A stretch of DNA of 64,000 bases from Psammoneis japonica (Eukaryota). The stretch's first letter is position 1; every line of letters starts with the position of its first letter. The position numbers were made by a program, and so were the translations under genes. Shown here in pieces: positions 10,901-55,084 of the stretch. The notes beneath the pieces are model-generated. The model did not search any database. It had not been told where the DNA came from and worked only from the letters and a program-made list of their open reading frames with translations. Location: the NCBI GenBank assembly GCA_008632985.1, contig QPGO01000028.1, positions 429,598 through 493,597 of the forward strand, read 5' to 3'.

Positions 10901-12920
10901 GCAAATGCACGCATTCAGAGCGATTCACCCTTTCTTTTTTTCAAAAAATGCAAGCTCTAAAACAAAAAGACAGCAGCACGCAGATCCATCCCAAACTGAT
11001 TTAAAACCTTGTGTCCAGGAGTGTCCAAAATGTGTCCACATCCGGGTTTTTGGATGTGGAATTTGCACTGGGAACTGTGCAGGAGAACGATTTTCGTGTT
11101 GGCTTTGACTGGACTCAAGGTTAAAATGGCTTGCATTTTGCACAACTCACCATGCCATTTTGGCCTGCTTCAGAGCACTCCCAAACACTTGCACGCTCAT
11201 CAAGCCCTTGTCAGGTGCTGTGGCTGTCAGAAGGCTGCTGCAAGAGCTGCATGTTTGATGCTTCAAATGCCACTTGTTCACCTTCCAGCAGAGTTGTCAG
11301 ACAGATGAAACTGCCAGTTTTTTCTGAAGTCAGCCTTCTCATGGGGAGCGAGCCACAACTTTCTGGGGGGGTCATCCCATGAGTGGCATTTGGATGGCCA
11401 TTTCCATGGCTGCATTTGCCAAGCAAAACATGCACATGTTTGCAATTGTTGTTGGTGCATTCTGTGATGTCTTGCAAATGGACAAAGTTTGGCCCATTGC
11501 TGAAATTTTGTTTTGGCAAACATGGTGTGCATTTGGTTGGTGTGCGACCCACCCATTTTCATTTTTAAATTCCAAGCTCCCAAAAACAGACTGCACAGCA
11601 CATGGCTGGATCCACCCTCAAGACAAATCAGTGAAACCACAAAAGTCTTTGTTGCACATGGACATTCAGAATTGTGCACACATTGTCACTCATTGACACA
11701 TTCAGTTGCATGCAGGATGTCTGTCCTGTCACATGAACGCATGGTCATTGTCAGCTGACCCTGCACAAGGTCAGATTGTGTGCAGATGACAGTCAGATGC
11801 TTTTTGGACAGACGAGATGATCTCACTGAAATCTTCAACTCACTCTTTCTTGCTGGCACACCTGTTGTCTGCTGTCACCAGTTCGCAGGGAGCTCTTCAG
11901 CTCATTGCTCTTGCCGTTGGCATTCTGACAGGTTGCAGCCTCACCAGGTCATCATTCTACAGCACTGCAATTTCCACTGTGGTTCACTTGGTTTGTGAGC
12001 CAACAAGCCTGCTGCCATTTTTGTGATCCTGGAAGTGCCTTTTTTCATCAGCGCACTGGCCCCACAGGCCAGCGCCAGGTTTCCACATGTGCATGGTCAA
12101 AAACTTTGTGCACCTCATCAACCATGGCAAGTCCAAGAGCCAAGAAGCCCATTTGTGACACCATCAAGGAAATTTCTGTTGTCTTCACACAACATGCCTT
12201 TAAAACCATGAGGTCACAAAGCACTTCAACAGTCTTTGCGGTGGCATCATCATCAACCTGGATCATTTTTCTGAAGGTTTCATTGTCCCACTCCAGGATT
12301 GTGCTCTTCAAGAGCTCATTCTCCCATGGAGACCCTCAACCCTGCTGTCACACTGCTGGTTGTATCACTCTTCGAGAAAGCAACCCTCAAGGTTGCCAGT
12401 CTTTCATCTTCTAACCAAGCATCTCATTTGTCCTCACAGATGATGGACCACAAGATTGAAGAAGCTTTTCAGGCTTGTCACAGAAAGGTGGTCATCACTG
12501 TTGGCATCTCCTGTCTCTGCTTCTTCCCTGCTGTTGTGCAACATGCCCTCAGGGACTGGAACGAGCTTTCACATGCCACATGCCCTCCAGTTTGCGCTCC
12601 CAAGACTCCAGCAACATTTTGTCCCCACTGCTTCAGGTTCTCTGAACAACTCCAGCCAGTTTGATGGACACACTGAACAACAACTGTGCGGCAGCAAAAA
12701 CACCTGCATCTGAAGCTCCTGGTGGACATGAGACCCCCATCATGATGCTGTCATCAAAATTCTCATTCAATCCAGATGCTCTGCCCAAGGATGTCCACGA
12801 GTGTCACAACCACAAGGCCTCAGACAATCACTGCATGTTCCTGTGCGGTGCACGATTGGGAGTCACACATCATCATGCACTCACATCTCGACCAGAAAAG
12901 CACACGAACCCTCCTTCGAA
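4912..12920. other. Heavily decayed, TpA/CpG-depleted repeat block with unidentifiable TE remnants
   Basis: TA is nearly absent and CG is low, TG/CA is abundant, and spurious Cys/His-rich ORFs occur in all six frames. Confidence 0.7.
10531..11524 (+). repeat. Diverged direct repeat, about 380-400 bp units at ~10531-10908 and ~11121-11524
   Basis: Collinear shared blocks: GCATTTTGCAC, CAAGAGCTGCA, TTTGATGCTTCAAATGCCACTTGTT, CAGATGAAA, GCCTTCTCATGGG, GAGCCACAACTTTCTGGGG, GCTGAAATTT..TTTTGGCAAA. Confidence 0.85.
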
Positions 12921-14316
12921 TGCAAAATGAACCCCTCCGATCCCTTCCTTTGGACTTCACCCTTTCAAGATTCCCTTCTCACCATCACTCACCACTTTCT
13001 TTGCTGTGCTGCCTCCCACACTGCTCCTTTTCCTGATCACTCTTTGGCCACAGCCTTTCTCCTGGCATTGCTTGGCAGCCTTGGCCTTCGAGACCCAACA
13101 GCCACTGCCATCCCATCGCTTGTGGTGTCCTTGCTCCGCTCATTTTGCTTCGCATCTCACGGCATCAAGCTGCCGTCAGGTGCCACAGTTGCTCTTCCAT
13201 GCTGCTTTTGGCTTTCTCTCTCCTCTTGGCACAACCCCTGTTCTGTCCTGTGGCTCCACTCCATTTTCCGTTGCTGTGCTCCAATTCTCAACTCTGCCTC
13301 TGCCCTTTCTCCCGCCTCCCTGGCCACACTTGTCAAGTCTGCTGCTCTTCCTGGCTTGGCCCACCATCGGCTGCACCATGATCATCAGCAACAGCTCGTT
13401 GCCTCCATTCTTGCTGACACTTCCTCTAAAGCACAAGTCTCCCTGCCTTTGCTGCTGTCTCCGCTTGCCTGTCTGCCTCTCCACTCCTTCTCCCGCCACT
13501 CTCAAAGCTCCCGGCGCCTCTCTTCCGATGTCTGCATCATTGCCATCCAATGCAAACTTCACCTTCCCATCCTTCCCCACCCTCCCTTGTTGACACACCC
13601 TGTTCTTGTGGTCACACCATCCTGGATGCTTGTGGCAACCACGCCTTCTCTTGCCGTGGTGCACACAAATCAAAGCTCTCCAATGGTCTTCGCGACACCC
13701 TCTTCATCCCAGCCCAAACTTTAGCCCCTCTTGCTCAACTCTGCCGCTCCTCTGCGGACGTCCACCTTGAACCCCTTCATTTGCTCCCCTCTCGGCCCCT
13801 CCTTTGCCCTGCTGATGTTGGCACATCTGTCCCTCCTCCCGCCTTGCTCTCGGCCCCTTCCCGCCATCACTGCATCACGATCGACACGTCAACGCACCCC
13901 AAGCTCCTTCTCCCCCCCCCCCCCCTGAATTAACTGAGGCACACCATGCAAGCACGAGACTGAAGTTTCTTGGCCCTTCCACCTCCTCTGCTGATGGCTC
14001 CCTTGTTGTTTCTTTGCTCAACAAATGACGGAGTCTTCCTTCTCCCTTTCGCCGTTGATCACCTCTTGGTGGTCTTGGCTTCTTCGCTCATCGCCTCCTC
14101 TTTGGCTCTACATTCACATCCGTCCGGTCTCAACCCAAGCCCCCTTGGTCCTCTCCCTCTGACTTTCGGCACTCTGATCCTTCCCACTCCGCCTTTCTCT
14201 ATCTACGCCTTGTCCTCTCCATCTGCTCTCCTTCCATCGGCTGATTCTGCATGGCGTCACCTGTCCTCCGACCGCTTCAGCAGCACCTTCCGCACGCTGT
14301 GCCTCTCCATCCGAAT
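12920..14316 (+). mobile_element. CRE/R2-like non-LTR retrotransposon 3' fragment (CCHC knuckle and restriction-like endonuclease), left part
   Basis: C/T-rich coding strand. CSCGHTILDACGNHAFSC (CCHC), then EP..LLPSRPLLCPADV (RPAD), ITIDTS and FLLPFAVDH, which are RLE-domain motifs. Confidence 0.7.
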
Positions 14317-17300
14317 GGACTTTGTGCCTTTCAAAATCTTGGTTGCTTTTGCGCGCAGCACACAAACGCAGCGGAACTGAAAAAAATTCTCTGCCGAAGA
14401 CTCACTCCGACATGACAGAGTGAACAGCAACAGGCACCGGCAATCCATGCGGACCATCCGAAGCTCACTGTCGCTACATGGTCTTTATAAGATGGGTGTG
14501 CAACTAGGCTCTAAGCTCCTGCATGCGCTGGGAGGCCTGACGTTTTCGCAAATTGTCTCGTTGTGCTGTAAGAGGGCGGAAGATGCATGCTGCGTGGGTT
14601 CGCCGGCTGTTGCTGCGGACATGTCGTGGCTTTGTCACAAACTCCGCAAAACCACCATTGCCAATACAAGAACTTACACATCAGAATTTGCATTGAAGTT
14701 TGTTGGTGAAGGTTTCGTCTTCTACACGGCGTTTGATCCAGATTGTCGCCATCATGCGAAAAAGGCCTCCATGCGGCGTGAATTCGATCGTCAGCATGGT
14801 GTGGCCGACTGCATCGGTGCGAAGACTAAACTGCTTCAGATCTCTCGCATTCTTCGTGAAGAAACATGTCAAAATGAAGGGGAGAAGCACATCTTGAAGA
14901 GTCAGCTTGAAGATTTGGAAAAAAGGGTCAAGAAAGCAGAAAAGGCCAGTGCAGAAGCTCAGCGGCACCCAGAAATTATTGACAGTGCGCGAAGAGCCAT
15001 GGAGGATCTGGCAGTGTTACACCCTGGAAAGGTTGTGATTGTCACAGGGAAGTTTCATGCTGACAGTTGTGTTCAACATCTGTTGACAGCCAAGACCACA
15101 GATCTGGCTGTTGGGAATGACACCGACTTCTCAATCATTTCTGGAGAGGCATGTTTGCAACTGTCAAGCTTTGGCATTGCTGTCAAACAAAACAGACGCC
15201 GCAATGAAGCAGAAATTAAAGAAGGAACAGTTGCAACTGGGTCGAGTCACACAATCCAAAACGTCCGTGGGCATCTTGGCAACACCGTTGGGAATTACAG
15301 GGCCACGGACCTCCCTTCACTTGATGGCACCACTGATCTCCGAACTCGTTGTTTGATTGCGGCATTGTTTGGAAACGACACTTTCCCAAAAGAACCAAAG
15401 AGTCTGACATTCTTTAAAAACATGGGGCCGGCTGCAGTGCGTGACATGATCCATCGCATTGGTCGAGACGCTGATGGCAATGTTCCTTTTGAGGAACTGC
15501 TGTCGGAAGCCTTGGATGCGGCAACCTGTAAGAAAGATGCTTTGAATGCAGCGGCACAGAAAGAAGGTGCATCAGATGCTGCAGTGCTCAAACAGCAGCA
15601 GCACGCAAGACTGGTCGAACTGACACGACCAGTCTTGAAAGCTCTTGTGGAAGCGATGGCACATGAACCAGCGACAGTCGCTCAGTCTGGAGAAATGCTG
15701 CACTCTGTTTGTCCACCAATCGGGCCAGCAGATCACTGCATTGAAGACTTTGTCAGTGGAGATGACATTGGACCAGTCACACGTGAATGTGAGCTTGGAA
15801 CTTGTCCTGGCCCCTGTCCCTCTCACGGCCACATTTACATGACGGGAGAGGGCAACCGAGAGTGTGGAAAATGCGGAAAGACGTTTTGCCCAATGTGCGC
15901 AGTTACAAACGAAGACGAATCTGGAAGCACCGACGTGGTGTGCATCCCTTGTCTTGGAGCCACAACAGATTCTGTAGATCCTGCATCCAAGTTGTCAGAG
16001 AATGTGTTGCGGGAGGCGCCAAGCGACAAAATTGAAGTGCCGGCTGACACGCCGATGGCGGATCTCCAGGAACTGTGCGTCAGCATTGTGGAGGGCGACT
16101 CAATGGACTCTTTGGATTCAAAAATGTTGGAGCAAGTGCGGCATCCATTGCACCACCCAAGAGCACTAGATTCGAATGAGAAAGTGTTGGATTTTGTGGC
16201 TGATTTTGACTTTCGAGATGGCGCTCACTTTCTTCGTGATTGTGATCTCACCTGCATGCAGCGTTGTGGTGTCATGAACCTGTTGGCAGACCTTGTCACA
16301 TTTGGGAAGAACGAAAGCTTGCCAAAGCATGCAGAGGTGCTGCCATCGCTTGTCTCAAAATTCGCAAGCGAAGCAAGAGTCGACAGTGGAGAGCGTTTGA
16401 TGAAGCGCTGCATGCGGCACGCTCTCGACCCGAAATCGCCATCAATGCTCCATGCACATGGTGGCACAATAGAGCACAATGGAGAAATGGGCCTCACAAC
16501 ACATGACAAAATGTCACCATCATTCAAGGATGGCATGCATGCCGCATCATCGGCGTTTGCTGCACCCGATTTGTTGGCCAACAGATGCAAGTGTAAAGCT
16601 GGAGCGGAAAATCAGTCAGTGGTGGCAGAGGTTGGCGGGACCAGCACCGACGATGCGGGAAAGCACGTGTGCGTACACTGCCTTCCGGTGCCGCACAAGG
16701 TCACAATTCTTTTGATGGACGGTCTGGCAGAACACGCTCTTGTTGAGTTCTCGTCGTGTTTTGGCTGTCACGAGGAAAACAGCCTAGATGTTTCAGATGA
16801 AGAAAAATTGAGAATGTCTGTTCTAACGCTGATGGATGCCGCCAGTTTTAAGAGTGCCGATTCTCTCCAATCGAAGTCGCCACATGAGCTGCTGCAAGCA
16901 TTCGCGGTTGGCACAGAGAGGGGCAAGAACAAGCTGCCCGACCCACCTGACCCTGAAAAGTTGGGGCCAGTGCGGAACTTCAAAAGAGTTTCACCAGAGG
17001 AAAAGGCAAAAATGGCATTGAAGATGAAAGAAGAAAAGACGGCAGCATCAACCACGAATGTGGCAAATGAATCGGACACCTTGCCCGAACCAGATTGTCC
17101 AACAATGTCGCAGCTGTGCCGCACCTTCGCCAAAGTTCTCGCTGACAACAAAAGCTTGGATGAGACAATGATTGTCGGGCATCATTTGCTTGACCTGCAT
17201 GCAAAGAAAGTTGGTGCAACTGATGCTGCTGTTTCTTTGGTGGATGCTGGGCTAAGGCCGAGGGTCAAACAACTGTTCCAAGCAGCAAGAACCCGTGTGG

Positions 17301-19240
17301 ATCCACGAACAAAAGCAGCAGAGGCAAAAAGGAAACTCGCAGCAGAACATTCGGAGGAATCAGAGTTGCAACTGGAGGCACAACCAAATGATGCAACGGA
17401 ATCATCAAATAAAACAAAGCGTCGGGTGTCGAAACGCCCGGCATCAAAAAGCACCCGTCGCTGCTGCTGCCAAAACTGCAACAACAACATTGCCACTGGT
17501 TCCAAGATTGTGCCGCCTGTTCCCACCAAACCACCGGTGGGAGCCAGTCGCAATAGATGGATGACGTGCTTCAAGAAATGGTTTGATCGACGTGAATTTC
17601 TGCGACGAATCGGCACAGATGAAAACGACTCACGCAAAGATCTCAGGATCTGCCTCTGCCACCCAGTAGAAACAACCACAAAATCTTTCGCCGTGACGAC
17701 ACCAGCATTGATGCCAGTTTCGTCACCACAAGGCAGAGAAGACGAGTCGGACCATGAAAATGGCGAGTTAGAAAAAGGAGACGGTGCAGATGGGGAGAAA
17801 AAACCGACAGCATTTTCCAAACGCGCTGCATTTAAAGGCCTGTCTGTTCCTTTGGGCGCCAAAAGCAACCAATCCGAGGCATCCCCTGCCACAACTTCTA
17901 AAGGGGCAGGAGAAGTGCAACAAATGGTGCGCTTTGCTACTTTGGATCATAAAGTTGGAGAAGAGGCTGTGCGAAATGAGTGTCTTGCTGTGCAGCAACG
18001 CACGGAAATTGAGCCGGGTGAACAAACCAAAATGACAGAAGAGGTCCATCCATGTCTCCAGCAGTCTGCAGGACTAGACCAGCACATCAAGTCGCCACCA
18101 AAGAAGAAGAGAGCCACCGAAATGACCAAACCTTCAAAGGGCAAACCGTCGACTGCCACTGTTCCGCCTGCAGTTGATCCTCATTCTATTTCGACTGCTG
18201 ACGTTCAAACTCGCTGTGGGTTTGGATCCTTGTTGTTGCTGCTTTGTTTCATTGCGGTTGTTTGCAATGGTGACATTTCTGCAATGATGAAAACAACAAC
18301 AAGATTGAGTTGGTTTGAAGAATGGTTTTTTTTCTTTGAATTGCTTTGGGGGCGGTCTCTGCATCGCTGGGTAGATGCAGAGCGTACGTGCAAAATACAC
18401 CACAAATGTCTTCAGAGAACATTCGAACAAAAGCTTGCTCTTGTTAAGTCGGCAGCAAATCGGTGGCCGCGACACGTTTGTCACGAGGAGGACGTGTCCC
18501 TGCACTCTGAGAAATGGAAGGAACGGTACAGAAACAAGCGTGTTGTAATGTGGGACAATGCAAATGTTGATCTGATGGGGAAGCCTGCAGACGCAGATTT
18601 GCAGCGACTCACGTGCTCACTTTGTTGCGGCGGGAACGTTGTCAAAGGCGGCATCTTTCTGCAACTTTGTGGGTGGCTTGGCGGCTGGGAGCTTTGGCTG
18701 GGAGCGATGTCAGACTCAGACTATTTAGAGAAAAGTGGGCTGATGCAGTGCCAAGAACAATTTCAAAAGATGGACCCAACCTCCACGCTTTCTTTCACAA
18801 ACATCTTGGACAAGGGACACCGGTGTGTTTTGGCCGCATGGCGAGCAGGGGGGCAGCTGCTACTTCAGCCATTCTTTGCTAAAAGTGATCGAAAGTTTAC
18901 CAGCCGCGAGGTCCTTTTATCAGGTGCAGACAGGTCGGGGAATGAGCGAGCGGTCAAGCGGATGAAAATGAGCAACTTGATTGCTGGCGGCATTCATCAA
19001 AAACAAGATCTGAACAATTTTGCTGATGTCTGGATTGCCTGGGGTTTCCAATGCAATTTCATGTATGAGCCAGTGCTTTAAAATAACTGCAGTATTTTTA
19101 CTTTACCTTGTAGAAGCTAGATGTTTTGTTTCGTCTTGTTGTTCTAGACTCTACTGTGTCGTTTCTGTTGTTTCGTGCGGGGCATGCTGACAGCCAAGTA
19201 ACCCGGAAAGCAACCGAGAAATTCGAAAGGCACAAAGTCC
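14317..19240 (+). mobile_element. ISL2EU/PIF-Harbinger-type DNA transposon, 4924 bp, ~33-bp TIRs, AT target-site duplication
   Basis: Left end GGACTTTGTGCCTTTCAAAATCTTGGTTGCTTT starts at 14317. The right end reverse-complements to GGACTTTGTGCCTTTCGAATTTCTCGGTTGCTTT and ends at 19240. AT flanks both ends (14315-16, 19241-42). Confidence 0.92.
14492..19081 (+). CDS. Multidomain transposase: FEN1/XPG-like nuclease, Cys-rich Zn finger, SWIM, THAP-like region and Harbinger/ISL2EU DDE domain (open frame but hypermutated)
   Basis: N-terminal MGV, AFDPD..HHAKKAS, FHADS, GNDTDF, LFGNDTF, NMGPAAV (XPG N/I and H3TH). CxxC clusters, then CKCKAG..CVH (SWIM). C-terminal MWDNANV..QRLTCSLCCGGNVVKG..GAMSDSDYL..DKGHR..RSGNERAV (DDE_Tnp_4-like). 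Confidence 0.85.
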   Translation: MGVQLGSKLLHALGGLTFSQIVSLCCKRAEDACCVGSPAVAADMSWLCHKLRKTTIANTRTYTSEFALKFVGEGFVFYTAFDPDCRHHAKKASMRREFDRQHGVADCIGAKTKLLQISRILREETCQNEGEKHILKSQLEDLEKRVKKAEKASAEAQRHPEIIDSARRAMEDLAVLHPGKVVIVTGKFHADSCVQHLLTAKTTDLAVGNDTDFSIISGEACLQLSSFGIAVKQNRRRNEAEIKEGTVATGSSHTIQNVRGHLGNTVGNYRATDLPSLDGTTDLRTRCLIAALFGNDTFPKEPKSLTFFKNMGPAAVRDMIHRIGRDADGNVPFEELLSEALDAATCKKDALNAAAQKEGASDAAVLKQQQHARLVELTRPVLKALVEAMAHEPATVAQSGEMLHSVCPPIGPADHCIEDFVSGDDIGPVTRECELGTCPGPCPSHGHIYMTGEGNRECGKCGKTFCPMCAVTNEDESGSTDVVCIPCLGATTDSVDPASKLSENVLREAPSDKIEVPADTPMADLQELCVSIVEGDSMDSLDSKMLEQVRHPLHHPRALDSNEKVLDFVADFDFRDGAHFLRDCDLTCMQRCGVMNLLADLVTFGKNESLPKHAEVLPSLVSKFASEARVDSGERLMKRCMRHALDPKSPSMLHAHGGTIEHNGEMGLTTHDKMSPSFKDGMHAASSAFAAPDLLANRCKCKAGAENQSVVAEVGGTSTDDAGKHVCVHCLPVPHKVTILLMDGLAEHALVEFSSCFGCHEENSLDVSDEEKLRMSVLTLMDAASFKSADSLQSKSPHELLQAFAVGTERGKNKLPDPPDPEKLGPVRNFKRVSPEEKAKMALKMKEEKTAASTTNVANESDTLPEPDCPTMSQLCRTFAKVLADNKSLDETMIVGHHLLDLHAKKVGATDAAVSLVDAGLRPRVKQLFQAARTRVDPRTKAAEAKRKLAAEHSEESELQLEAQPNDATESSNKTKRRVSKRPASKSTRRCCCQNCNNNIATGSKIVPPVPTKPPVGASRNRWMTCFKKWFDRREFLRRIGTDENDSRKDLRICLCHPVETTTKSFAVTTPALMPVSSPQGREDESDHENGELEKGDGADGEKKPTAFSKRAAFKGLSVPLGAKSNQSEASPATTSKGAGEVQQMVRFATLDHKVGEEAVRNECLAVQQRTEIEPGEQTKMTEEVHPCLQQSAGLDQHIKSPPKKKRATEMTKPSKGKPSTATVPPAVDPHSISTADVQTRCGFGSLLLLLCFIAVVCNGDISAMMKTTTRLSWFEEWFFFFELLWGRSLHRWVDAERTCKIHHKCLQRTFEQKLALVKSAANRWPRHVCHEEDVSLHSEKWKERYRNKRVVMWDNANVDLMGKPADADLQRLTCSLCCGGNVVKGGIFLQLCGWLGGWELWLGAMSDSDYLEKSGLMQCQEQFQKMDPTSTLSFTNILDKGHRCVLAAWRAGGQLLLQPFFAKSDRKFTSREVLLSGADRSGNERAVKRMKMSNLIAGGIHQKQDLNNFADVWIAWGFQCNFMYEPVL

Positions 19241-19242
19241 AT

Positions 19243-19460
19243 GGGCTCTCCATCTCCAGGCTCAGCTACCGGTACAATGTGGTCCTCCATCTTTCTACCG
19301 GTATGCATGCCCTCCGATTTACCTCTACTCTTCCCGCTCCTGCGTACCCTGTCCCTTCGACTAAGCGCCTTACGTCCACTGTATTCACTCGTTCTATTCC
19401 ACCGTCACTACAGCTACTACCGTGCCTCCTTCTGCTGTTCCCTTCCATTCTTTATAGGCT
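19243..19460 (+). mobile_element. Right-hand continuation of the CRE-like element after the transposon insertion
   Basis: Removing 14317-19242 joins GCCTCTCCATCCGAAT|GGGCTCTCCATCTCCAG (ASPSEWALHLQ). The same pyrimidine-rich composition continues. Confidence 0.6.
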
Positions 19461-19470
19461 CTTCATAACT

Positions 19471-21117
19471 ATGTACTTAAAAACAACAAACAACAGCACA
19501 GCAGACAGGAGTAGTCTACGACCAACAAAGAGAATGTCTTCTGCCAGAAGCAATCAGCCGCCGCCATCCCGGACCACAAAGAAGGCCAAGAAGGAAGAGG
19601 ATGCGAATACTGGTAATCTGGGTGATGACATCGTTGCGTCCGATGAAGGCATAACTTCCAAGTTGCAAAAGTTGAAACAACAAATTGATGCGAAAGAAAA
19701 GCAGGTTGCGGCAACAAGGCAGAAAGCATATCAGGCCAAGAAATCGGGGGAGGACAAACAAGAGCTTGCGGCTTTGCGAGAATTAGAAAACTTCCAAACC
19801 GAAGAAAACACCTTCCAAAAAGAATTTCAAACCTTACTAGGAGATTTTCGTGATGGACGTTATTTTGCTGCGACATCCGACTATTGGAAAGTGAATTCGG
19901 TCAATGTTGGCGGACACGCAATCTACAGCAAAATTACGTGGCAGGACTTCCATCGAAGCGCGACGGTGGCTGATTCTATCAACGCTCGCCATTACGCATC
20001 GGGACGTTACGAGGTCACGATACCGTATAAGGACACAAGGGAGGGTGCCGAAGACGACAGTAAACCCGCTGCTCAGTCGGGTACAGCCAGAACGAGCTCC
20101 AGTCAACAAAAGAAAAAAGAGACACGCGACAATGTGTGGCCTGCCGACATTTTTGGCAATCCAGTGGACCAGCAGAACATTGTTCACCTTTTACCAGCTG
20201 GGCGAAACGATCACAAGGAATGGGTCTTCGTCGCGGCGGCTGTTGTAGGATGGGAGGTAGGGTCATCGACTAATCCAATTGAACAGCTGAAAAAAGTGAC
20301 ACGTGGGTTTCGCCAGAATGCTGCAAGCTCATCAAAAGTGCCAGGCACGGGAGTTGTTGATTTTGTTCCGAATAAACTAATGATGTATCAAACGGAAATC
20401 TGGGATGCCGACAAGTGCAATGCGTTGTTGATCCCCATCATGAAGCTTGAAGACGCCCGGGCTTGGGTTGGACAGTCCTATCGAGCTCTGTTCATCGTTG
20501 GAAAGGCTTTTAATGGTTCTACTGATCCAGAGAGGAGCTCTGACGAAGTCCGAAAAGACTACTGACATGTTAATTTGAACACACGTGAAATCATGGACCG
20601 CGATTGCGTCAAAGATGCTTCGGAGCTGCAGATCGAGAGGGCCAGGGAAACGCTTATTCAAGCTGTACTAGCTATCAGACATATGATCGCTCATTTGTCC
20701 GATGCTGAAATTGATATGCTTGGCCTCCCTCATGAAGGCAGAACTCTTAAGGACGCGAAGGGATTTGCGAAAAGTCCAGATTGTCTTCTGCCTGGGAAAG
20801 TTGACAGCATTTCTACGCGGTCGAATCCTCGTCCCGTATGCGTCGTAGAGTTTGCTAGCAACAGCGGCGACAACGGCAGACACCCATCTCCCGATCCTTT
20901 GATTCTAGCATATAAGGCGGCCGCTGTGTGGGCGAAGATGACGGGAAAACGGTTGCTCGCTAACGGGACTCCCCCAGACCTGTACCCCGATATGACGGAG
21001 GAAGACCATGTTGCGGAACTGGCGTATTGTGAGGCAATTTATCCCTCGCAAAAGATGCCAGAAACGGTGCAAGAGTTGGCTGTGGGTTTGGGTCAGCCCA
21101 ACGGGTATGAAAGCTAA
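19471..21117 (+). pseudogene. Coiled-coil plus possible HNH-like nuclease family protein, interrupted by one in-frame TGA (20563-20565)
   Basis: ORFs 19126-20565 and 20575-21117 share a frame and are separated by TAC TGA CAT. Motifs WPADIFGN..IVHLLP..EW and HPSPDPLILAYKAA. Family assignment is tentative. Confidence 0.55.
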
Positions 21118-38689: not shown

Positions 38690-41600
38690 GTCACCAGAGA
38701 ATGGTGAGATAGTTCAAGCATGGTTCCATGTGTTTTTCCTCATTCCCTGAAACAGTCATGCCATGCTCTCACCCTGCACTCTTGGTTCTCATTTTGTTGC
38801 ATCTGCGGCCCGCGCCATCCGCACGGTGCCAATGGATGAAGACGGATTTGGCACTGGCATTGTGCTTGTGCACATGTTCAAAGCAATTGACCAAATGAGG
38901 CAAGTCTTCTTCTACGAGTGAGTGACAGGATCCCCATTGTCCCTGAAATGTTCACATTTCTCTCGTCCGTGCGAGGGATGTCGGCCTTTGCATTCATGTG
39001 CGTTCCCGCCCTCAAATTCGATGCAGCGCATGCAACGACATTTATTTCTTTTCTTGTTGTCACCACTGCGCTCACCTCTCTTTCTTGTTCTTGGGCCTCT
39101 TTCATTTGCAGGTTCACCTTCCGCCAACACAGGGTGCACGGGGCACATTTGCGTGCCGCCCACTGCAATGATTCTGTCGTCGTTGCGACGAGCATTCTCG
39201 GATGGAACTTCAAGAGCACGTGGTGCAAGTGGGATGGGCCAGTGCACAGAGCGAGTTGGGGGCTGTTGCTGTTGAGTGTTACCTTCGTTGGAGTTGCCGC
39301 CGTCTTCCAAGACTTCTGTTTCGACTTCGCTGGAGGTCTCGTCAGTTGCAGCATCGGGTGGCAGGGTTTGATTCAGGTGCGTCAGCGCTTCAAAGACATT
39401 CCTCGCGCCCTGAATTGCATCCTTTGATCTTTGATTTCGTTTCCACTTTTCATGGTGCAGATTCAGATGTGCCTCTAGCTTGGGAAAGACCGTCACGCCA
39501 TTGCAGTGCTTGGTCCAATCGAGACAGAACTGCGCGGCATTGAAAGGAGACTCCAGGCAAAACCGCGAGAAAAGTTGACACTCGGTCACGCCGTGCACAG
39601 GTAAGAAAGGCAGCTTAGCTCCCATTGCTGCAGCATGACATGCCTGGTCTCTAGTGAGTTTCACTTTCTTCTCCTCACCTGGTTTGCCCGCGTCACTCTT
39701 GCTCCAGGTCTCAAACTGTGTGGCTTCGACTGCGTTTGCCAACTCCTGATTTTGTAGCAGGATTGTGTCGAAGCTCTCTGCCGCATCTTTGTAGTCGCTG
39801 GAATTTGTCCATTCAGGGTACAACAGGACGCCGTGATTCTCTTCAACGAGGAGTTGCAGCCTGTCAATTAACCACGTGTCGAAGTGGCCGATCTTTGGGA
39901 AGCCCTGTCGTCGACGCTCCGAGCATCGATGATTGTGACGATGCCGACGTTCACTTAAAAGGCAGTCGGACATTTCTACCCCGGTGCACCACGTTCCAAA
40001 TGTTGTCACCATTTGTTTGTGAATCGACTCAACATCGCTTGTTCCTCTGTTGCAATCCAGCAGATGAAATCCGTGTTTGTTCTTTGCGGGTTCCCCTGAA
40101 CTGTCAAGACGCAGAGTGTAAAAAGACACACCAGGAGGGTCCGACAAATACCCCGCAAGAATGTCTTTGAGTGCCCCATTGGCTTTCTTCCATGATGCCT
40201 TGTTGAAAAGGGATTTCCCGGTGTCATCATCAATTTTGGAACCCAACAACACATGCACGGCGCGGACTCGCCAATGCAGCTGCCGAGGGGGGAGCTTCCG
40301 TCGATCAACGCACTCTCGAAAGAATTTTACTCGGCAGTACATTTCAAGCTCAATTTCAGCTTCAGTGCAACCATCTGCAATCATTGCCTGCTTCACCTCG
40401 TCCAGCTTTTGTGGATTCCAAGCGCACTCGGCTTCGCGGAGGGCTGCTTTCATTGCCTTTTTGAAGATGTGCCGAACCGGCATTTTCGGTCTGTCGATGC
40501 TGTGAAATCCATCACCGTTCACAGCAGAGAATGCCTTCGGCATGTTGTTGGGGTGGATCATCCAAACAAGGGTGTGGCAGCGATGTTCGTCCGGCCTCAG
40601 CATCGGAAGCAAGAGCCTTGCATTGTCGCATAAATTCAATGTCTTCCATTGCAAGTGTCGATGCATCTGCATCCTCCTCCTCATCATCATCAACACCAGT
40701 GTCCTCAAATTCCTCATTGTCGTTTGCTGTTTTGTCATCTGGCTCCATGTCAACTGGTGCGGGTGCTGGCTCAGTGGTCGTGACGTCGTCGTTCAGACCG
40801 GGCTGGGGTGCAACGGCATCTCGGATGTTGTCGTTTGGCACGTGGTGCTTCAGCATGGTTAGCGGCAACAGCACAGAGAATGGAGGGGCACCGAAGTCTC
40901 CAAGGCAAACTTTTTCACCTGTGCGTCGCGCACTGTCATCTGTGCTGGGCAGCAATTGTGCGGACTCACAACATCTTTATCGTCAGTGATGATTCCCCAT
41001 CCAGCTCTTGTTGCCATGGCAGAAACGCCACCACGACTTGGAACAACATCCACCGATGCATTCGGGACAGCATCATTCAAGGGCAATCTCACCGTGAGAT
41101 CGGGCATGTCGTGAAGATGCAAGCAAACTTCGAGTGATTTTGCAGCATCTGTTGAAGCACATCCCATCTGTGCTTCTGCAAGCGGCACCATGGTCCAATC
41201 CGACAGTCTCACATGCATTGGTTTTTCCAGCGTCTCTTGCAGAGTCAATTTAACTGGTGCTTCAAGCCCGACACCGCCATTCTGTACGACATCTCGCTTC
41301 CGAGCGTGCGTGCCAAGATTCTGAACATTTGGCATGTGCTTGGTAAATTCGTCAGCTTTGAAATCTCTGCCGATTTTCTTGAAGTCACCAGCAACTCCAA
41401 CGCCAACAAAAAGAATCTCTGGATCATTCAAGAAAGCTCGCAGACGGTTTGGTGCCTTTTGCAGCGACGTCCATGAGATGATTAGACATTTTGTCGAGCC
41501 ATCGTCTGCGCGACACGCAAGCTGAGCAGTGCCGATTTTGCCACTTGACACAACCATGCCACGTGAGTTCTTGCTTGTCGGCCACTCACAATCTAGCCCC

Positions 41601-44570
41601 ATCACCCGCTCACCTTCTGGTTTCTCCTTTACACGCTCTCGCAGTGCATCAACCACGGTGTTTATTTCGGCATTGCTGCACAGGACACGGACGTCTTGAA
41701 CGTTGATTCTGCAAACTGTTGCATCACTGGCAGCATCAGAAGTGGGTTCTTCGCACACCTTGTTGCACAACTCTTCAAAGTGCCGCAACGATGGAATCGT
41801 TTGGAGAAGGAACGGCTTGTCGGCACCAGGTTTGTCAGTGAAGACCATTTCTGCCGGATCCTGGCCGCACGCTTCAACTGTCTTTCAAAAGGCAAGTGTT
41901 GCATTGCGCATCTGGTCGTGACCATCCGACACAACGTGGTGCTGCATTCTAATCTCACCAAACTCATTTGTGCAGGTGACAAGGCCTTTGAAAATGGGGT
42001 TGCCGTGGCATTGACAGAGGTGCTTGGCCTCTTTGAATGATGCGTCAATGTGAAGGTGCCGTGCGCCCCTCTTCTTCACTTCCTTGTCCAAATGCCGCCG
42101 CATGGATTTGTGGTGCTCCTTGTGAATGTGAGCAAGGTGCTTCCCAGTGGGGACCAGTCCATCACACCCAGCTTTGTCGGAAAAGGTAGAGCACATGCTT
42201 CGTTGCAATGCTGGATTCAATGCCTTGTCACGCTTGCACCTGTTCTCACGTTTGATGCACTCGCGGTAGCACTTCTTGGAATGCAACTCAAGGAGCAGGC
42301 TGGAAAGGGCTTCTGGGTGCATTCCTTTGTCATGTGCTGGGCGCATGAGGTCTAGCACTGTTTCTTTGTCGACGCCGGCCCTGTGGGAAAGGTGGGCAGG
42401 AAACTCATCGCCATGTCCACAAGGCATGAGTTCAGTGGACAATGGATCACAGCCCATGAATGTGCACTGCCTCACATTGTTGCCATTGTCTTGCCTGTGT
42501 TGTTCCTTGCAGTGGTGACACATGCACTGAGCTGTCATGGCGCAGCAGCATGAATTGAGCGAGATGATGCGTCGTGCGTGGTGATTTGTTTGACACCCGT
42601 GTAGCCCAACCCGATTTTTCCGCCTGCAACAAGGACAGTGCGGAGTGCCATCTGGACCCCACCTGATGTGCGGCAACCACACAACAACCTCTCGACAGCA
42701 TGAGGGTTCTTCACAAACGATGCCAAGCTCATGACAAATCATTCTTGCATTCTCCACCAACAATTTCCAACCACTTTCTCGCAGATGCTCCAGGAGCCAA
42801 CGTCTGTTCAGAGCACCGCCGAGGTTCCCAGCAGTCTCTTGCCTCAGTCGAGCACGAACCACCCTGAGGCATCTGAGCATGGTCCCATCGGGTCCACCCA
42901 CAGCTTCATCTAGACTGTCGTCACATTCACCAAAGTCGTCTAGCTCTGCCGTCACTGGAGGCAAATCCACAGGTTTGGGAGGAGGCTCGCGACCCATTGG
43001 CCCAGAATGCGCAGCACAGAATCCACATGCGTGGGCTTGAGCTCTCGAGCAAAAGATCCAGTGACATCAACCAAGAGCCTGCTGCAGCACCCCTCACAAA
43101 GATTTTGCTTTCAACCAATGCGCTGGCATCAAAACTTCCCACCGACCTGCTGACGGCGGCAGCGCGCGCAAAAAATCCTCAAGACACCCGGATTTTTGTC
43201 TTGCTGCCACCTCAGCACTCAGCAGACTCTCTGCTAGAGTGGGCACTTCTAGCAGATGGCCACATCCCGTTTCGGGTTAGGTTGTGGTTGGTTGTTCTCA
43301 TCACAAAACGAAGACAATGTCATGTGCATGTTGGGTCATTGACAAAAAGCAGTGCCAAATGAACAAACAAGAAGGCAAAAAAAGAAAACAACACTGCCAC
43401 AGAGTTGCAGTGTCTTCTCTGTGAAAATCGTGTCATGAGCTGCAGCCAGTTTTTCAGCCTTGGTTCAGGGGTGAAAGAGGAGATGCGATGTGCTGGTGCC
43501 AATGCAGAGGTGAGAGATCTCAAAAGATGCAAATGGCTGTTGGAGTGGCAACGGGAGCTTTGGCAGTGAGTTTTTTTCTTCATGTGCAGTGGCGGCATCA
43601 CAAGAAAATGGAGCTCCTCTCATCAAGAGCTGCTGGCACCACACCTGCCTTTCTTGGGAAAAGCTTTTCACTCCAGAGCTGCACAAGAGAGCCACCCACA
43701 TCTTTTCTGCTGCACTCAATTGGAAAGCAAACAAGGTGTCCAGCTCTGCTGCCCTGCATCAGCCTGGAGGCATCTCGGTGTTGCCCCAGCCACAGCAGCA
43801 AACAGAGATGGGCATTGCACAGAGTCGCACAAGACATGCTTTGCAAACAAAAAAGCCTTGCAGCACATCGAACAAAGGGCAGTTGGCTTCAGCTGGGACA
43901 GTGTTGACAGAAATGAGAATGTCAAGTTCAGCCCAAACATCCTCACTCCTTGTGTGAAAACAAACCCAAAGAAAGCCAAAACCCATCACACAAAAAAATG
44001 CACTTTGTCTTTGACAGAAGGCCAACAAGCAAGGATGGCAACAGCCAAGTTAAGGTCAACCCTGATGATCCACTTGCCTGCAAGAAAGTTTGAGTGTCAG
44101 AGTTGAAGGCTTGACATCTGGCCACCCTCAACCAACAAGCAAAGTGGTTGAGCAGCCACTGCAGCAGAGGCAGAAGCTCAAAAAGCTGACACCCAAAATT
44201 CCCAAGCAAATTGTGGAATGACCAACAAATGCTGCAATGTTCCAACTGGATGTGGGTGCAATTCTGGCATCTTTGACAATCACTAAAATGTCAAGAGCTC
44301 CATGCCTGGACACTCCGGACAATTCACAAAAGCCTTCAGTGACCTGCATTGGCTTGAGCTCACCTGGAAGGGCATCAGCAGAGTTGGTCCTTCAGAAGAC
44401 TTCTGTTCCCAATGAATTGTCTGATGAGCTCTGGTCAAGACAACCTGCTGTGCAGCAAGCCAGTGTAGGGATGAAAGGGAAAACAATCAAAAGAACTGTG
44501 TAGACCACCTGGCAAGTGGCATGACAACATTGGCGCCTAGAAACATGAGTGCACCAATCTTTGTCCCGAC
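38690..44570 (-). mobile_element. TpA-depleted transposon block containing the exonuclease-transposase; termini not resolved
   Basis: Compositional boundaries and the internal transposase remnant. No TIR or TSD was found by eye. Confidence 0.5.
38912..43260 (-). pseudogene. Decayed DNA-transposon ORF: DUF6729-like Zn region and DDE transposase with an inserted WRN-like DEDDy 3'-5' exonuclease
   Basis: Frameshifted pieces 42997-41885, 41848-40859 and 40753-38912. Motifs CPCC..CHHC, EFPAHLSHRAGVDK, IDASFK (D1), VFTDKP (D2), LDCEW/GVAGDF/SDW..CASTDA (ExoI-III), GDGFH (DxxH) and RGTSDVESIH (E). Confidence 0.75.
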
Positions 44571-50521: not shown

Positions 50522-53500
50522 TCAACGGCAGTGTCCCATCAAGCGGCGGGCATGGCGGGAATGGAGTGTCCAACCCACGGCCTTGGTCAGTGCATCAGCA
50601 GGGTCAATGACACCCGGGATGTGTCGAGTGACAATCTTGCCTGCGTCATGCCAGTCTTGGACAGCAAAATGTTGAACATCAATGTGGTGGGATCGCTCCG
50701 CAGGCACCTTGTCATTGACCATCTGGATGGCAGAGGAGTTGTCAAGGTGCAAGGGAGCTGGATCACGTTGGGGAAAACCCAATTCTTCCAGAGCCATGCG
50801 GAGGTGCAGGGTTTGTTTTGCACCAGTGACAGCTGCGAGGAACTCAGCTTCCATGGAACCAGTGGTGGCAATCGTTTGCGTGCGGCATCGACAGTCAATC
50901 GCAGCACCAGCAAGGACATGGGCATGTGCCGCATCAATGAATCCAAGAAGTTGGAAAAGGTCAACAGCACGAGGAAAATCCGGGAGAGATGGGTCATCCT
51001 CAAGCCATTCAAAATCGCGAGGAGGGAGGCCGGGATCGCGTTCAGACTTCTTGCAGGTCAGTCCCCAATGTTTGGTGCGCCGCAAACACTTGGCCACGCG
51101 CTTGAGTGAACTGCAATGGAGCTCAGCCGGTGCCTTGGAAAACTTGGACAAGGTGACAACAGGACAGCCAATGTCCAAATGACAACAGGAGCAGGCAAAG
51201 ACCAACCCACCCAAGACAGAACAGCGCAAGAATCCTTGGGACTCAGCAAGAGCATCATGCTTGGGTGCGCCCTCTTCAGGACCTTCGGCAGCACACAGAT
51301 CAGGAATGCAATCAACCGGAACAGGTGTGGCCTTGAAATCAGAATCAGACTCATGCGCAGTGGGAGCATCCCAACCATGGGTCTTGAAAACACGGTCAAG
51401 GTGGCTGGCAACGTTGACAGTGATTGAGTCGTCATTTTGAATGACATCAACACTGTTGAATTCAGCAACCAATCCCAAATGCTTGAAGGGAGGAGTGTCC
51501 TCATTCTCCATCTGGAGAGCCCTGCCAACATGGTCGTAGATCTCTTTCGCAATCTTTTCAGATGGACAAGCAAGAGCAAAATCATCAACCTGGCGAAGGA
51601 GGAGGACCTTGACACCATCATGTTCACCGGAATGGATGCACTTGTCATGAGTGGCATCACGGAAAAGAAGTTTCGCACCCGTGAGAATCGAGTTGACATG
51701 CTTCTCCCAGAGGACACCAGCTTCAGGATGGCCTTGAAGAGCATGCTTGAGCGGGAGAGACGCGTTCCAGCCCTAGGTGGGAGCTCGTAGCACTGACGTG
51801 TGACAACAATAATTTTTATCATCCGTCGTATGTTTCGTACGTAGATTTCTACGTGTGTTATTTAAAAAAAATTGTCCAGACTCGCTGTTTTGCGAAGCCC
51901 CAGACGTTTTATATAACAAATTTATAGAAACAATAATGCGCCAGTTACATTCTTCAATGTCTGAAGAATGTAGCTGTCTAAGTAACAAATGATGTACTTC
52001 AATCATGTGCGAGTTTGTGCGTTCGCAAAATTGCCTCATTTTCTGTTGGCGATCATTGACATTTTAATTACCGTATAATTTTACTACGGAGCTCGCACGT
52101 AGAAGTCTGCGGGCCCAATGTCACACGGATTCCCACCTACGTCTGGAACGCGTCGAGAACACAATGGCGGGGCACTTTCTTGCCAAATCTCTTTTCACAC
52201 CAGGCAGCATGTGCATCATCAACAGCAACAAAAACCGGTTGTGATGGGCCAGGAGAATGAGCGCAGGCATCCCGAGCATCGCCTCCGAAGACACAATGCG
52301 ACACAGCCGCACTGAGAGCGAAAAACATCTTTTCGACAGAATGTTCCACACACGACGAACAGGTGGAAGTCAACTTGTGCAAGGCTGGCATTGCGACTTG
52401 GAACCATCGCCACATTGTCGAGAGCGACGTTGTCCATCCGGCTTTGCCATGTGATCCCAATGCGGACGCATGATGTTCGCGCCAGGGGGACATGGTTGCG
52501 GAGGACCACACATGCCCAGGGCATCAAATTGGTCCAGTTGACGCTGTTCGCCTTCTTCCCATTCAGGCCATGTGTCAAGTTTACGAAGTTTGGCGCGGGT
52601 GAGACGGTCAAGAGCAGCTTCCTCCGGAGTGAGTGAGCGAGAGCCAATCGCACTGAGATGTGCACAAAATGCATCCGCAGGAATGGCCTCATCCGAAAAA
52701 TCATCATTGGGACAGAGAAGAGCCACAACAGATCGCACATCTTCCAAAGCAAGTTTGGGAACATGAGAGTCGTCCTCCATGGTGTCAGGTTCAAATGACC
52801 CCGCTTCCTCAAATGCCTTGTCAAGGGTGCGACGTCGTTCCGGCGCAAAAGCAATCTCGAAAGTCGAAATTTTATCATGGAAGACCTGAGACAAGGCCTC
52901 TTCAGCATCCAAAGGAGTAAAGACCTCATGCTTGTTGACAGAGACAATGCATGCACCCACAATCTTGTTGCGAGCAGCACGGAGGGAAGAAAACAATGAA
53001 GCCGCAGGACTGCGCTGCTTGATTTCCGACACATGGACACGGTCCATCAGCGCACACTGAGAAAATCCAAAACCACAAGTGGGGTCCTTTGGAGGACGTT
53101 TCATGGCACATGCAACAGTCGCAGCAAACGGATTTGACGAAGATGTGAACACAGGAACGGTGGTGTCCTGTGTTTCAGCTGGAAAAGGCTGACCATTTTC
53201 CACACACTGTAAATGGACAGCATTGGGAGGGAGTTGATCCAAAAATGGGTCATTCACACCCTCATCGCAGTGCACATGCTTGGCTGTCTTGACTTTGTCG
53301 GTCTCAGGATCCCACCACATGACATTCTTGAGGGTGTTGGGAAGGTGACCAAGGAAGACACCCTTCTTGGAATTGGTCTGGAAGGTGGCAGAACGAGCAG
53401 TGGACCGTTTGGACCATGCTCGACATCCGAAAGTCTTCAGAGCAGTAAAATCTTTGACCTTTCCGGCAGCAAGAGTGATGGGTGCCGCATCTTGAGCTTT

Positions 53501-54800: not shown

Positions 54801-55084
54801 AATCGGGGAGATGCGCGCGGCACTGAGAGGCAACAAATGCTGGGTGCCAGTCATGTCAAGATGCTCAAATGCTTGGTCTTGGTCAGTGGACAATGGAGCA
54901 TCAGCATCCAATGCAGGAGGATCCAATTCCCTCCCCTGATTGTGATTGCCAGGGTCATCATCAGGAATCATCTTGGGATCAGGAGCACCAGCCTTCGTCG
55001 AGCTCGAAAGAAGGGCAGCAAATGAGACAGGTGAAAGAGGAGGATCAGCGGAAGGCAACGAGTCGTTTGGACCCTCTTTCACAG

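Follow-up and report, generated by a model that had tools for sequence, protein, structure and literature searches.

The stretch of DNA analysed here (the window, 64 kb) carries at positions 14317-19240 a transposon of 4,924 nt (~4.9 kb), whose features as read from the sequence are collected in Table 1. As stated in the preliminary description, it is bounded by terminal inverted repeats (TIRs) of about 33 bp that begin with GG. The two repeats are identical over their first 16 nt and differ by three mismatches and one indel over the whole repeat (our count); the repeat search returned a core of 21 nt at 95% that includes the AT. Within the 64-kb window the exact 16-mer of the TIR occurs at the two element ends only. 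Six contigs of a DNA sequencing run (X1) match the element as far as 14349 and diverge beyond this position, and a 314-nt contig of the same run, which shows zero differences, terminates at 19242.

Table 1. Positions of the transposon's features in the window, with the basis of each assignment
Feature	Position	Strand	Basis
AT flank, left, putative 2-bp target-site duplication	14315..14316	.	read directly; AT-GG junction also in 4 other independent elements
Left TIR, 33 nt, GG start	14317..14349	+	repeat search and direct reading
Single ORF, 1529 aa from ATG plus stop	14492..19081	+	open from 14420
XPG/Rad2-family (EXO1/FEN1-like) 5' nuclease domain (predicted), residues 1-400	14492..15691	+	
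Cys/His cluster C438..C487 (C,H,C,C,C,C,C,C)	15803..15952	+	8 ligands invariant in 16/16
Conserved middle domain (MID), residues 600-830	16289..16981	+	own HMM detects the domain in all long relatives
SWIM-like CxC..CxH: C699, C701, C727, H729	16586..16678	+	within middle domain
THAP-like C2CH finger: C991, C996, P1011, C1054, H1057	17462..17662	+	five positions 16/16
DDE_Tnp_4-type transposase core, residues 1235-1529; D1355, D1440, E1485	18194..19078	+	
Right TIR, 34 nt	19207..19240	-	repeat search and direct reading
AT flank, right	19241..19242	.	read directly

The open frame 14420..19081 on the plus strand would encode 1553 aa if counted from a GTG. The ATG at 14492 is most likely the real start because the relatives all begin with MG[VIA] and M1 is kept in 29/29 N-terminal domains. 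The resulting protein of 1529 aa, free of internal stops, agrees with the single uninterrupted ORF of about 1530 aa reported before. When all six frames of the element were compared (~1640 codons each), the coding frame was found to contain five stops, none of them within the ORF, and the other five frames 35-76 each. By our arithmetic the 4590-nt ORF (stop included) occupies 93% of the 4924-nt element and thus leaves no room for a second ORF.

Taken alone, the window protein matched no relevant Pfam family and, in a phmmer search, no PDB sequence; all domain assignments rest on profiles of its relatives and not on single-sequence matches. Within the XPG/Rad2 family the N-terminal nuclease domain is most like EXO1, as judged by a profile of 29 such domains that matched the PDB sequences of EXO1 (E-value 4.4e-10), Rad2 (8.8e-6), FEN1 (1.4e-5), GEN1 (8.5e-4) and archaeal FEN-1 (1.3e-3), the EXO1 match being made up of three collinear segments, i.e. 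the N region, the I region and H3TH. A profile of seven sequences gave marginal matches (GEN1, 0.004). Matches to Fos bZIP, obtained with the N-terminal and other profiles, were discarded as coiled-coil noise from the helical arch. The predicted model of the domain is weak (pLDDT 59.9, TM about 0.3); it had 16 Foldseek matches at E<=1e-3, all of them EXO1 or FEN1 among those listed, which is consistent with a PIN-like FEN fold. Profile and fold matches alike speak for the FEN/XPG reading of the N-terminus in the preliminary description. The domain appears to be a divergent branch of XPG/Rad2 and not a member of the curated models. Neither the 16 relatives nor a further protein (P0037) reached the gathering score of Pfam XPG_N or XPG_I; below it, XPG_I matched two of the 16 (best 0.035) and P0037 (0.0044; 17.8 bits vs a cut-off of 24.9).

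Six of the seven canonical acidic active-site positions are kept in this domain, together with the gateway Lys/Arg. Across the alignment of 29 N-terminal domains D43, D82, D191, D212 and D296 are invariant and D210 is present in 28; the gateway-type basic residues K90 and R86 are found in all 29 and R96 in 25. The column matching E150 of EXO1 (Q189) holds Gln in 25 of the 29 family members, and His in the window copy alone. If the matched columns have the same roles as in EXO1, which we take to be the case, E150 being among the acidic metal ligands, then one of the seven acidic positions is Gln in the family and His here, so that nuclease activity is not assured.

The Cys/His cluster that follows corresponds to the Cys-rich finger noted earlier and is probably a two-zinc finger; its matches were weak and of the FYVE/RING type alone (1y02, E 0.13). 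For the SWIM-like motif, C699, C701 and H729 are conserved in 16/16 relatives and C727 in 14/16, with Asp in the other two; Pfam SWIM weakly matched 1/16 (E 0.1). The THAP-like pattern C-x4-C..P..C-x2-H is kept in 16/16 relatives. Pfam THAP matched 2/16 (best 0.0057) and 1/18 (0.045), all under the cut-off, and the best PDB match of this region was 2jm3 (E 0.31, weak). A protein atlas yielded no usable match for residues 540-900. The SWIM-like and THAP-like assignments are therefore made at the pattern level only: of the SWIM and THAP-like C2CH modules put forward previously, conserved ligand patterns stand, accompanied by weak Pfam matches and nothing further.

The C-terminus is a DDE_Tnp_4 transposase of the PIF/Harbinger-ISL2EU type, as had been proposed. 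PF13359 was matched by 10/16 and 13/18 relatives, the catalytic triad is present in 16/16, and a helical region stands between the THAP-like finger and the DDE core. The predicted model of the C-terminal part has an RNase-H-like transposase/integrase fold, the list of its fold matches being filled by the DDE core; Foldseek with a model of the THAP-like finger plus DDE core gave no match at E<=1e-3, and NCBIfam nothing for the transposase part. All of the FEN1/XPG-like, Cys-rich, SWIM-like, THAP-like and DDE motifs listed in the preliminary description are present, and they lie in columns conserved among the relatives.

Eight relatives have 861-1765 aa, and the full-length ones align over the entire query; the N-terminal profile matched 1426 cluster representatives. 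The full order XPG-Cys-MID-THAPlike-DDE was detected in 15 of 22 proteins of at least 1000 aa, at about 26-31% identity, and in the remaining seven at least one block escaped detection, the others following in the same order. XPG and DDE segments lie on one strand, with XPG upstream, in the 16 loci that have both. Intact single ORFs were read from metagenome DNA at loci L016/L017 (1607 aa) and L027 (1552 aa). As far as can be told from these sequences, the fusion architecture goes back to the ancestor of a large lineage, of which diatoms have yielded members and metagenome assemblies many more. The source names encountered for relatives were 'hypothetical protein' or 'DDE Tnp4 domain-containing protein' only. 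Two of the contig names read marine.

Because 15 of the 22 long relatives are collinear and two intact relatives were read from DNA, we take the nuclease-transposase fusion to be natural and not an artefact of stop-codon erasure. The opposite view, in which a nuclease-SWIM gene and a THAP-DDE gene became joined in the window copy when a stop codon was lost, may point to relative L022, where a single TGA interrupts the linker immediately before the THAP-like finger. The other in-frame stops, however, belong to decayed copies, where they stand at conserved codons for Trp or Arg. A stop between two ORFs in unmutated copies, which the preliminary description had named as evidence against the fusion, was not seen; relatives as distant as those above are uninterrupted. 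Proteins of 700-860 aa with the order XPG-Cys-MID were considered as a split form and rejected: they are truncations, because their end points are scattered inside the domain. The search for standalone XPG-SWIM proteins gave one match only, of unrelated length. Joining by stop-codon loss is thus very improbable, and the fusion may well have occurred once, deep in the lineage and not in the window copy. Even less credible is a domesticated host gene in place of a transposon. A long intact ORF and residues conserved across distant relatives would fit such a gene, but AT followed by GG marks the termini of each independent element for which both ends were located, five of five (window, L016/17, L055, L041 and L009). 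In addition, the sequences of L016 and L017 agree to 99.99% within the element, starting at the TIR, but are unrelated beyond it, i.e. the flanks change exactly at the TIR boundary. Moreover, internal-deletion derivatives and stop-ridden copies occur among the relatives, and run X1 contains diverged copies whose contigs break at the element ends. A GG-starting TIR was also found at the left end of L031, and none within the 5.8-kb contig of L027.

It is a separate matter whether the window copy itself can still move. Of 117 near-invariant sites it differs at 15, a number higher than in 13 of the 15 relatives compared, and it may for this reason be decaying and perhaps no longer active. Among the deviations are six changes of Tyr to Cys or His, of which two are neighbours in the DDE core, and seven of the 12 that a single base change can explain are A>G or T>C. 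Since such changes cannot create stop codons, an open frame could outlast a mutation bias of this kind. The family may accordingly be real and the window copy dead, its frame open by chance or through stop-sparing mutation bias; the His at the Q189 position, unique to this copy, is in line with that, as is the fact that the runs listed as matching the element comprised one DNA run, probably the one from which the window derives, and no RNA run. We consider this a substantial possibility, albeit one somewhat short of probable, given that the copy retains all invariant catalytic and zinc-ligand residues, that its 1529 codons are free of frameshifts and stops in spite of the stop numbers in the other frames, and that two relatives deviate as much (17 sites each). 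As to the AT target-site duplication in the preliminary description, AT is indeed present at both flanks and is putatively a 2-bp duplication, with a Spy-like insertion without duplication as the alternative. The duplication itself is unproven because no empty site was found among the contigs of run X1 and because AT reads the same on both strands, so that one copy cannot tell a duplication from a part of the repeat. A candidate empty-site joint (14277->19274) with 23 nt only on one side, in a CT-rich repeat, was set aside.

An element of the PIF/Harbinger-ISL2EU-Spy (PHIS) type with a nuclease-transposase fusion and tethered 5'-strand processing is, as a whole, the best explanation, and we put its probability at roughly 0.8. 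The transposon ends would be bound by the THAP-like finger together with the helical region, the DDE core would nick the 3' ends and join these, staggered by 2 nt, to an AT target, and the tethered EXO1-like nuclease would deal with the 5' strand. Tentatively, and at less than even odds, we prefer the reading that the nuclease acts at the ends of the transposon, where it cleaves or resects the non-transferred strand and thereby frees the element. In animal ISL2EU, YqaJ holds the partner position taken here by the EXO1-like nuclease, and 5'-strand processing is favoured because these two unrelated enzymes share 5'-to-3' DNA degradation. Alternatively, the nuclease of the same element might take no part in excision and either resect the broken donor, with copy-back by homologous repair and a net gain of copies, or trim 5' flaps or gaps at the new site. 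Such a role would suit the best structural and sequence match, EXO1, which is the cell's break-resection exonuclease, and also the YqaJ partner of animal ISL2EU, whose family resects ends for recombination. Internal deletions, as found among the relatives, are products of interrupted gap repair in other DNA transposons. The strict fusion in every long relative is less well explained in this way: host EXO1 and FEN1 are already available, and if the nuclease served repair alone there would be less reason to fuse it to the transposase. We regard the repair role as quite possible, although less likely than not, and it is by a small margin that we retain processing of the non-transferred strand during excision as the preferred reading.

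The function of the accessory ORFs of PIF/Harbinger-ISL2EU transposons is stated to be unknown in the consulted part of the pertinent survey (PMC4482050). A large lineage in which an EXO1-like nuclease is fused to the transposase argues for 5'-strand processing as an inherent part of this mode of transposition, as does the unrelated 5'-3' exonuclease of the animal relatives; the fusion hints that transposons of this class cannot move without a second, element-encoded nuclease. In its widest form, which we consider unlikely, this idea would mean that in the ISL2EU-like branch of PHIS the DDE core cleaves just one strand, the other being cut or removed by an obligatory 5'-to-3' nuclease subunit. 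On two or more occasions unrelated enzymes would have come to serve that need, YqaJ in animals and, in algae and other protists, an XPG nuclease resembling EXO1; in the present lineage the DDE core and the nuclease would be united in one self-sufficient two-nuclease transposase. In a single polypeptide each active site is open to separate inactivation by experimenters. The family also adds a widespread, unannotated transposon to the annotation of diatoms and metagenomes.

Judged by its sequence, the element is a cut-and-paste DNA transposon of the PHIS group. It is filed near ISL2EU because of its AT flanks, GG-starting TIRs, length of ~4.9 kb and THAP-like zinc finger pattern before a DDE_Tnp_4 core, and is closest to that family by hallmarks, not by phylogeny. 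The hallmarks given for ISL2EU in the part of the survey consulted are AT flanks, GG-starting TIRs, a mean length of ~4840 bp and a C2CH zinc finger before the transposase core (PMC4482050). A 5'-to-3' accessory nuclease, predicted in the window element, would likewise be common to both. In ISL2EU it is a YqaJ (lambda-exonuclease-type) protein encoded by a second ORF, as described in the consulted parts of three sources (PMC4482050, PMC4122938, PMC9179366). In the window element, by contrast, it has an XPG/Rad2 PIN-like fold and is fused to the transposase; Pfam YqaJ had no match in the window protein or in 16 relatives. Profile, fold and collinear relatives thus support the earlier proposal that a nuclease of a different fold stands in place of YqaJ, and this nuclease may, as was also suggested there, process the element's own transposition intermediates. 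The separate SWIM/YqaJ protein attributed to ISL2EU in the preliminary description holds for YqaJ, whereas SWIM goes unmentioned in the parts of the ISL2EU literature examined. Further differences are the extra Cys cluster and SWIM-like module of the window element and the host range, which in the 2015 survey was confined to animals and here extends to diatom and metagenome relatives. The literature search revealed no described family with this architecture, so that the suggestion of an undescribed lineage agrees with the literature searched and may be correct.

The domain resembles cellular EXO1, FEN1, XPG and GEN1 in fold, in the collinear N, I and H3TH regions, and in six of seven acidic positions plus the gateway Lys/Arg. 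It differs from them in scoring below the Pfam cut-offs, in the Gln at one acidic position, in lacking C-terminal partner-binding tails and in residing inside a transposon protein. AcademX, a lineage of Academ transposons, sets a precedent for DNA transposons with an XPG nuclease; its nuclease is said to have been recognized as XPG-type by Kojima in 2020. It, too, is found in eukaryotes and codes for a nuclease besides a DDE transposase, the former enzyme being termed just 'nuclease' in the consulted part of the source (PMC10045372). The transposase there belongs to another superfamily, duplications are 3-4 bp long and, as far as that part goes, a DDE_Tnp_4 core is absent (PMC10045372). The window element, with its DDE_Tnp_4 transposase and AT flanks, does not belong to AcademX. 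The two-nuclease division of transposon ends has a functional analogue, with no homology claimed, in Tn7. There, the DDE transposase TnsB acts on the 3' ends and the unrelated nuclease TnsA on the 5' ends; Tn7 differs in being bacterial, in the restriction-enzyme-like nature of TnsA and in the distribution of the two activities over separate polypeptides.

The window element, a DNA transposon in the Psammoneis japonica contig, is a real and well-delimited transposon. Direct reading of the sequence bore out the coordinates, terminal inverted repeats (TIRs), AT flanks and single ORF of the preliminary description. The first 16 nt of the two TIRs are identical, and by hand count three mismatches and one indel separate them over the whole repeat. 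An AT lies just before the left TIR and just after the right one, and the terminal 16-mer has no other mismatch-free occurrence within the 64-kb window. Since all relatives of the encoded protein start with MG(V/I/A) and Met1 is shared by all 29 N-terminal domains compared, the ATG at 14492 is taken as the start of the ORF, giving a protein of 1529 aa whose residues are numbered here from this methionine. In the element's five alternative frames, 35–76 stops occur per ~1640 codons; thus, the ORF is not open by chance. An open frame starts within the right end, but the host gene there probably begins at a downstream ATG, which would place the element just upstream of it.

Features of the window element and of the remaining window
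Feature	Window position	Strand	Properties
Left TIR, window element	14317-14349		33 nt
ORF, window element	14420-19081	+	1553 codons counted from GTG
Right TIR, window element	19207-19240		34 nt
Sequence around element	12000-14300 and 19384-19617		CT-rich, strongly C-skewed, GC skew -0.34
Open frame starting within right end of element	19126-20565		479 codons, TTG start, no Pfam family
Three consecutive ORFs: one	38912-42997	minus	DUF6729, E 1.5e-4, under cut-off
Three consecutive ORFs: another	38912-42997	minus	DNA_pol_A_exo1-type 3'-5' exonuclease, 1e-5
Three consecutive ORFs: another	38912-42997	minus	613 aa, no family
ORF and adjoining ORF	52370-57163	minus	Retroviral-polymerase SH3-like domain (1.8e-10); adjoining ORF 692 aa, no family

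A Pfam scan of the window protein alone gave no relevant family, and phmmer against PDB sequences gave no match. A homology search returned eight relatives of 861–1765 aa with ~30% identity, the full-length ones aligning over the whole query. When 1.84 billion cluster representatives were searched with a profile built on seven N-terminal domains, 1426 proteins scored E≤1e-3, 708 of them ≤1e-10 and 179 ≤1e-30; a 29-sequence alignment of this domain was assembled from these proteins. The resulting profile matched human EXO1 (E 4.4e-10), yeast Rad2 (8.8e-6), FEN1 (1.4e-5), GEN1 (8.5e-4) and archaeal FEN-1 (1.3e-3) in the PDB, the EXO1 match consisting of three collinear pieces that cover the N region, the I region and the H3TH motif. 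The AlphaFold model of the domain, based on a shallow alignment, is mediocre (pLDDT 59.9); all 16 Foldseek matches listed for it at E≤1e-3 are EXO1 or FEN1. Together, the profile and structure matches support the FEN/XPG-type N-terminus proposed from the sequence. EXO1 positions were transferred from the profile–PDB alignment and read with the catalytic roles of the EXO1 residues. Within the 29 domains D43, D82, R86, K90, D191, D212 and D296 of the putative active site are invariant; 28 domains have D210 and 25 have R96, and the column aligned with EXO1 E150 holds Gln in 25, Glu in three and His in the window copy. None of the Pfam XPG models reached its curated cut-off in the family proteins scanned, which places the domain in a divergent branch of the XPG family, outside the curated models.

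At the other end of the protein, the assignment to a DDE_Tnp_4-type core is upheld by PF13359 matches in 4/9, 10/16 and 13/18 relatives (three Pfam scans), several of them exceeding the 24.8-bit cut-off, and by the triad D1355, D1440 and E1485, which is invariant in 16/16. Foldseek with a model of the transposase part gave weak matches only, to mariner-type and Tn5 transposases. Between nuclease and transposase lies a Cys/His cluster (C438, H447, C458, C461, C466, C469, C484, C487) whose eight ligands are invariant in 16/16 and which matches known domains, of FYVE/RING type, only weakly. Of the two further motifs in the preliminary description, SWIM and a THAP-like C2CH finger, the ligand patterns stood and are conserved in relatives. 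In the SWIM-like CxC..CxH motif C699, C701 and H729 are invariant and the third ligand is Cys in 14/16; Pfam SWIM appeared in 1/16 relatives (E 0.1). The THAP-like pattern C991, C996, P1011, C1054 and H1057 is invariant in 16/16, with Pfam THAP in 2/16 relatives in one scan (best 0.0057) and 1/18 in another (0.045). The best PDB match of this stretch, aligned on an RICxxH motif, is the THAP domain 2jm3 (E 0.31). Both assignments thus hold at the level of sequence pattern only. One relative (P0006, 1765 aa) has two tandem THAP-like fingers, each CCFxGC .. LRYCSLHFS, plus an extra Cys-rich insert.

The single ORF could in principle have arisen by loss of a stop codon between two ORFs in this copy. 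Five block HMMs (XPG, Cys, a middle domain holding the SWIM-like motif, THAP-like and DDE) were made from a 16-sequence alignment and run over all fetched proteins. The complete series was found in this order in 15 of the 22 proteins of at least 1000 aa; in the remaining seven at least one block went undetected and the others keep this order, and no other order occurred among the 22. A scan of metagenome contigs yielded 73 related loci. In all 16 that carry both XPG and DDE segments (~13 of them distinct; L016/17, L031/32 and L006/07 are near-identical pairs), these are on the same strand with XPG upstream. Intact single frames, translated from DNA, encode 1607 aa in L016/L017 and 1552 aa in L027. 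L019/L020 contain three in-frame stops, two of them at conserved Trp codons, and L006/L007 one at a conserved Arg codon, which identifies them as decayed copies. In L022 a single in-frame TGA (2174-2176) interrupts an otherwise open 1275-codon frame in a poorly conserved linker just ahead of the THAP-like finger; it may have arisen by recent nonsense mutation or may serve as a regulated stop. Proteins of 700–860 aa with only the XPG, Cys and middle blocks were considered as a split form of the family and rejected, because their C-terminal ends are scattered inside the middle block, as in truncations. Collinear relatives, intact frames, stops attributable to decay and the truncation pattern rule out stop erasure for the window copy, and the proposed one-ORF fusion of nuclease and transposase is therefore genuine. 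The fusion event, if it happened, is ancient. A sub-lineage (P0091, P0101, P0105, P0112, P0114, P0117, P0122) carries in addition a Ulp1/C48 protease domain between middle domain and transposase (Pfam E-values 1.8e-6 to 3.6e-24); P0122 (1892 aa) combines XPG-like, C48 and DDE_Tnp_4 in one protein.

The window copy retains the invariant catalytic and zinc-ligand residues. At 117 near-invariant columns, where all relatives or all but one agree, it deviates 15 times, compared with 1–11 deviations in 13 of 15 relatives and 17 in the other two. In six of its deviations Cys or His replaces Tyr, and two of these six lie side by side in the DDE core; of the 12 deviations that a single base change explains, seven are A>G or T>C. 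Such changes cannot create stop codons. In view of these deviations and of this lean, the window copy may be decaying with its frame still open. Differences among the copies in run X1, the only sequencing run (DNA) found to contain the element, are mostly transitions (291 vs 62 transversions), and the lean could reflect a mutation bias acting on silenced repeats.

The L016 coding region lies between inverted repeats beginning AT/GGAGTGTGTGGCTT at 2187/2189 and 8254/8256. From 2187 onward L017 matches L016 at 99.99% identity and upstream of this point the two are unrelated, which puts the repeat boundary precisely at the end of the TIR. A hand count finds the window element and L016 identical at 12 of the first 16 TIR positions. 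AT/GG is found at both ends of L055 (a 2.1-kb deletion derivative), L041 and L009, hence in 5/5 elements with both ends identified, window included, and at the left end of L031. Internal-deletion derivatives (L003, L031/L032, L002, L029, L037, L041, L055) have lost the middle but retain the beginning of the nuclease and the end of the DDE part; in L003 nothing separates the XPG segment (HMM positions 1-344) from the full DDE segment behind it. In run X1, 271 contigs match the 7-kb stretch, 78 at 99+%, 51 at 95–99%, 61 at 90–95% and 81 at under 90% identity. In six of them the match breaks off after 14349, in four it begins only at 19195, and one difference-free contig of 314 nt stops at 19242. 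This pattern fits several diverged copies with common termini, contig depths not being copy numbers. No empty site was found among the run X1 contigs, and as AT is palindromic, the AT target-site duplication is putative. The CT-rich sequence around the element is itself repeated in this run, with summed contig depths (again not copy numbers) of up to 1290 vs 58 in unique flank.

The 202 shorter proteins related to the C-terminal part include one MMETSP transcript and, from the diatom Odontella aurita, a UniRef 'DDE Tnp4 domain-containing protein'; the family is thus present in diatoms and transcribed there. Two locus names contain 'marine metagenome'. P0171 (416 aa), which shares 54% identity with the transposase part and is labelled Fusibacter sp. 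MAG at NCBI, probably stems from eukaryotic DNA that was binned with a bacterial genome. Elsewhere in the window, the three consecutive minus-strand ORFs may form a further DNA transposon that encodes an exonuclease of its own, the SH3-like ORF and its neighbour are probably an LTR retroelement remnant, and the other long ORFs are ordinary eukaryotic genes.

We propose that the DDE core would act on the 3' ends, which it would nick and then join, with a stagger of 2 nt, to an AT target, that the THAP-like finger and the helical region ahead of the core would bind the element ends, and that the tethered EXO1-like nuclease would process the 5' strand. In Tn7, TnsA and TnsB divide strand labour. 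By analogy, the nuclease may act on the non-transferred strand and cut or resect it at the element's termini, a tentative reading (probability about 0.4). It might instead resect the donor break for homologous repair, or trim flaps at the new site, which we consider, taken together, slightly less likely. The YqaJ partner of animal ISL2EU elements and the EXO1-like partner here have unrelated folds, yet both degrade DNA 5'-to-3', which favours a task on the 5' strand. The fusion makes second-strand processing in this superfamily directly testable.

The nuclease of AcademX transposons is of the XPG type. AcademX is described in PMC10045372 as a nuclease-encoding DNA transposon lineage. Our literature search, which left Repbase and the main Academ paper aside, found, among the papers listed, none that joins an XPG-type nuclease with a Harbinger or ISL2EU transposase or with a DNA transposon superfamily, or a FEN1/EXO1/Rad2 nuclease with Harbinger, and a PIN-superfamily survey contains no occurrence of 'transposase'; to this extent the architecture is, as first suggested, without a described family. 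According to PMC4482050 (section 5), ISL2EU elements make AT duplications in an A/AT/T target, have TIRs usually starting with GG, average ~4840 bp and occur in 14 animal species only; their transposase combines DDE, HTH and THAP, and a second ORF has a YqaJ exonuclease domain. PMC4122938 and PMC9179366 give the same account of YqaJ and THAP. Judged against this description, the window element resembles ISL2EU in termini, AT flanks, size and, at the pattern level, its finger, and differs in having no YqaJ feature and a host range that is not animal. By these hallmarks it is an ISL2EU-like member of the PIF/Harbinger-ISL2EU-Spy group; new are the fused single-protein form, its wide spread and the sub-lineage with an inserted Ulp1 protease.
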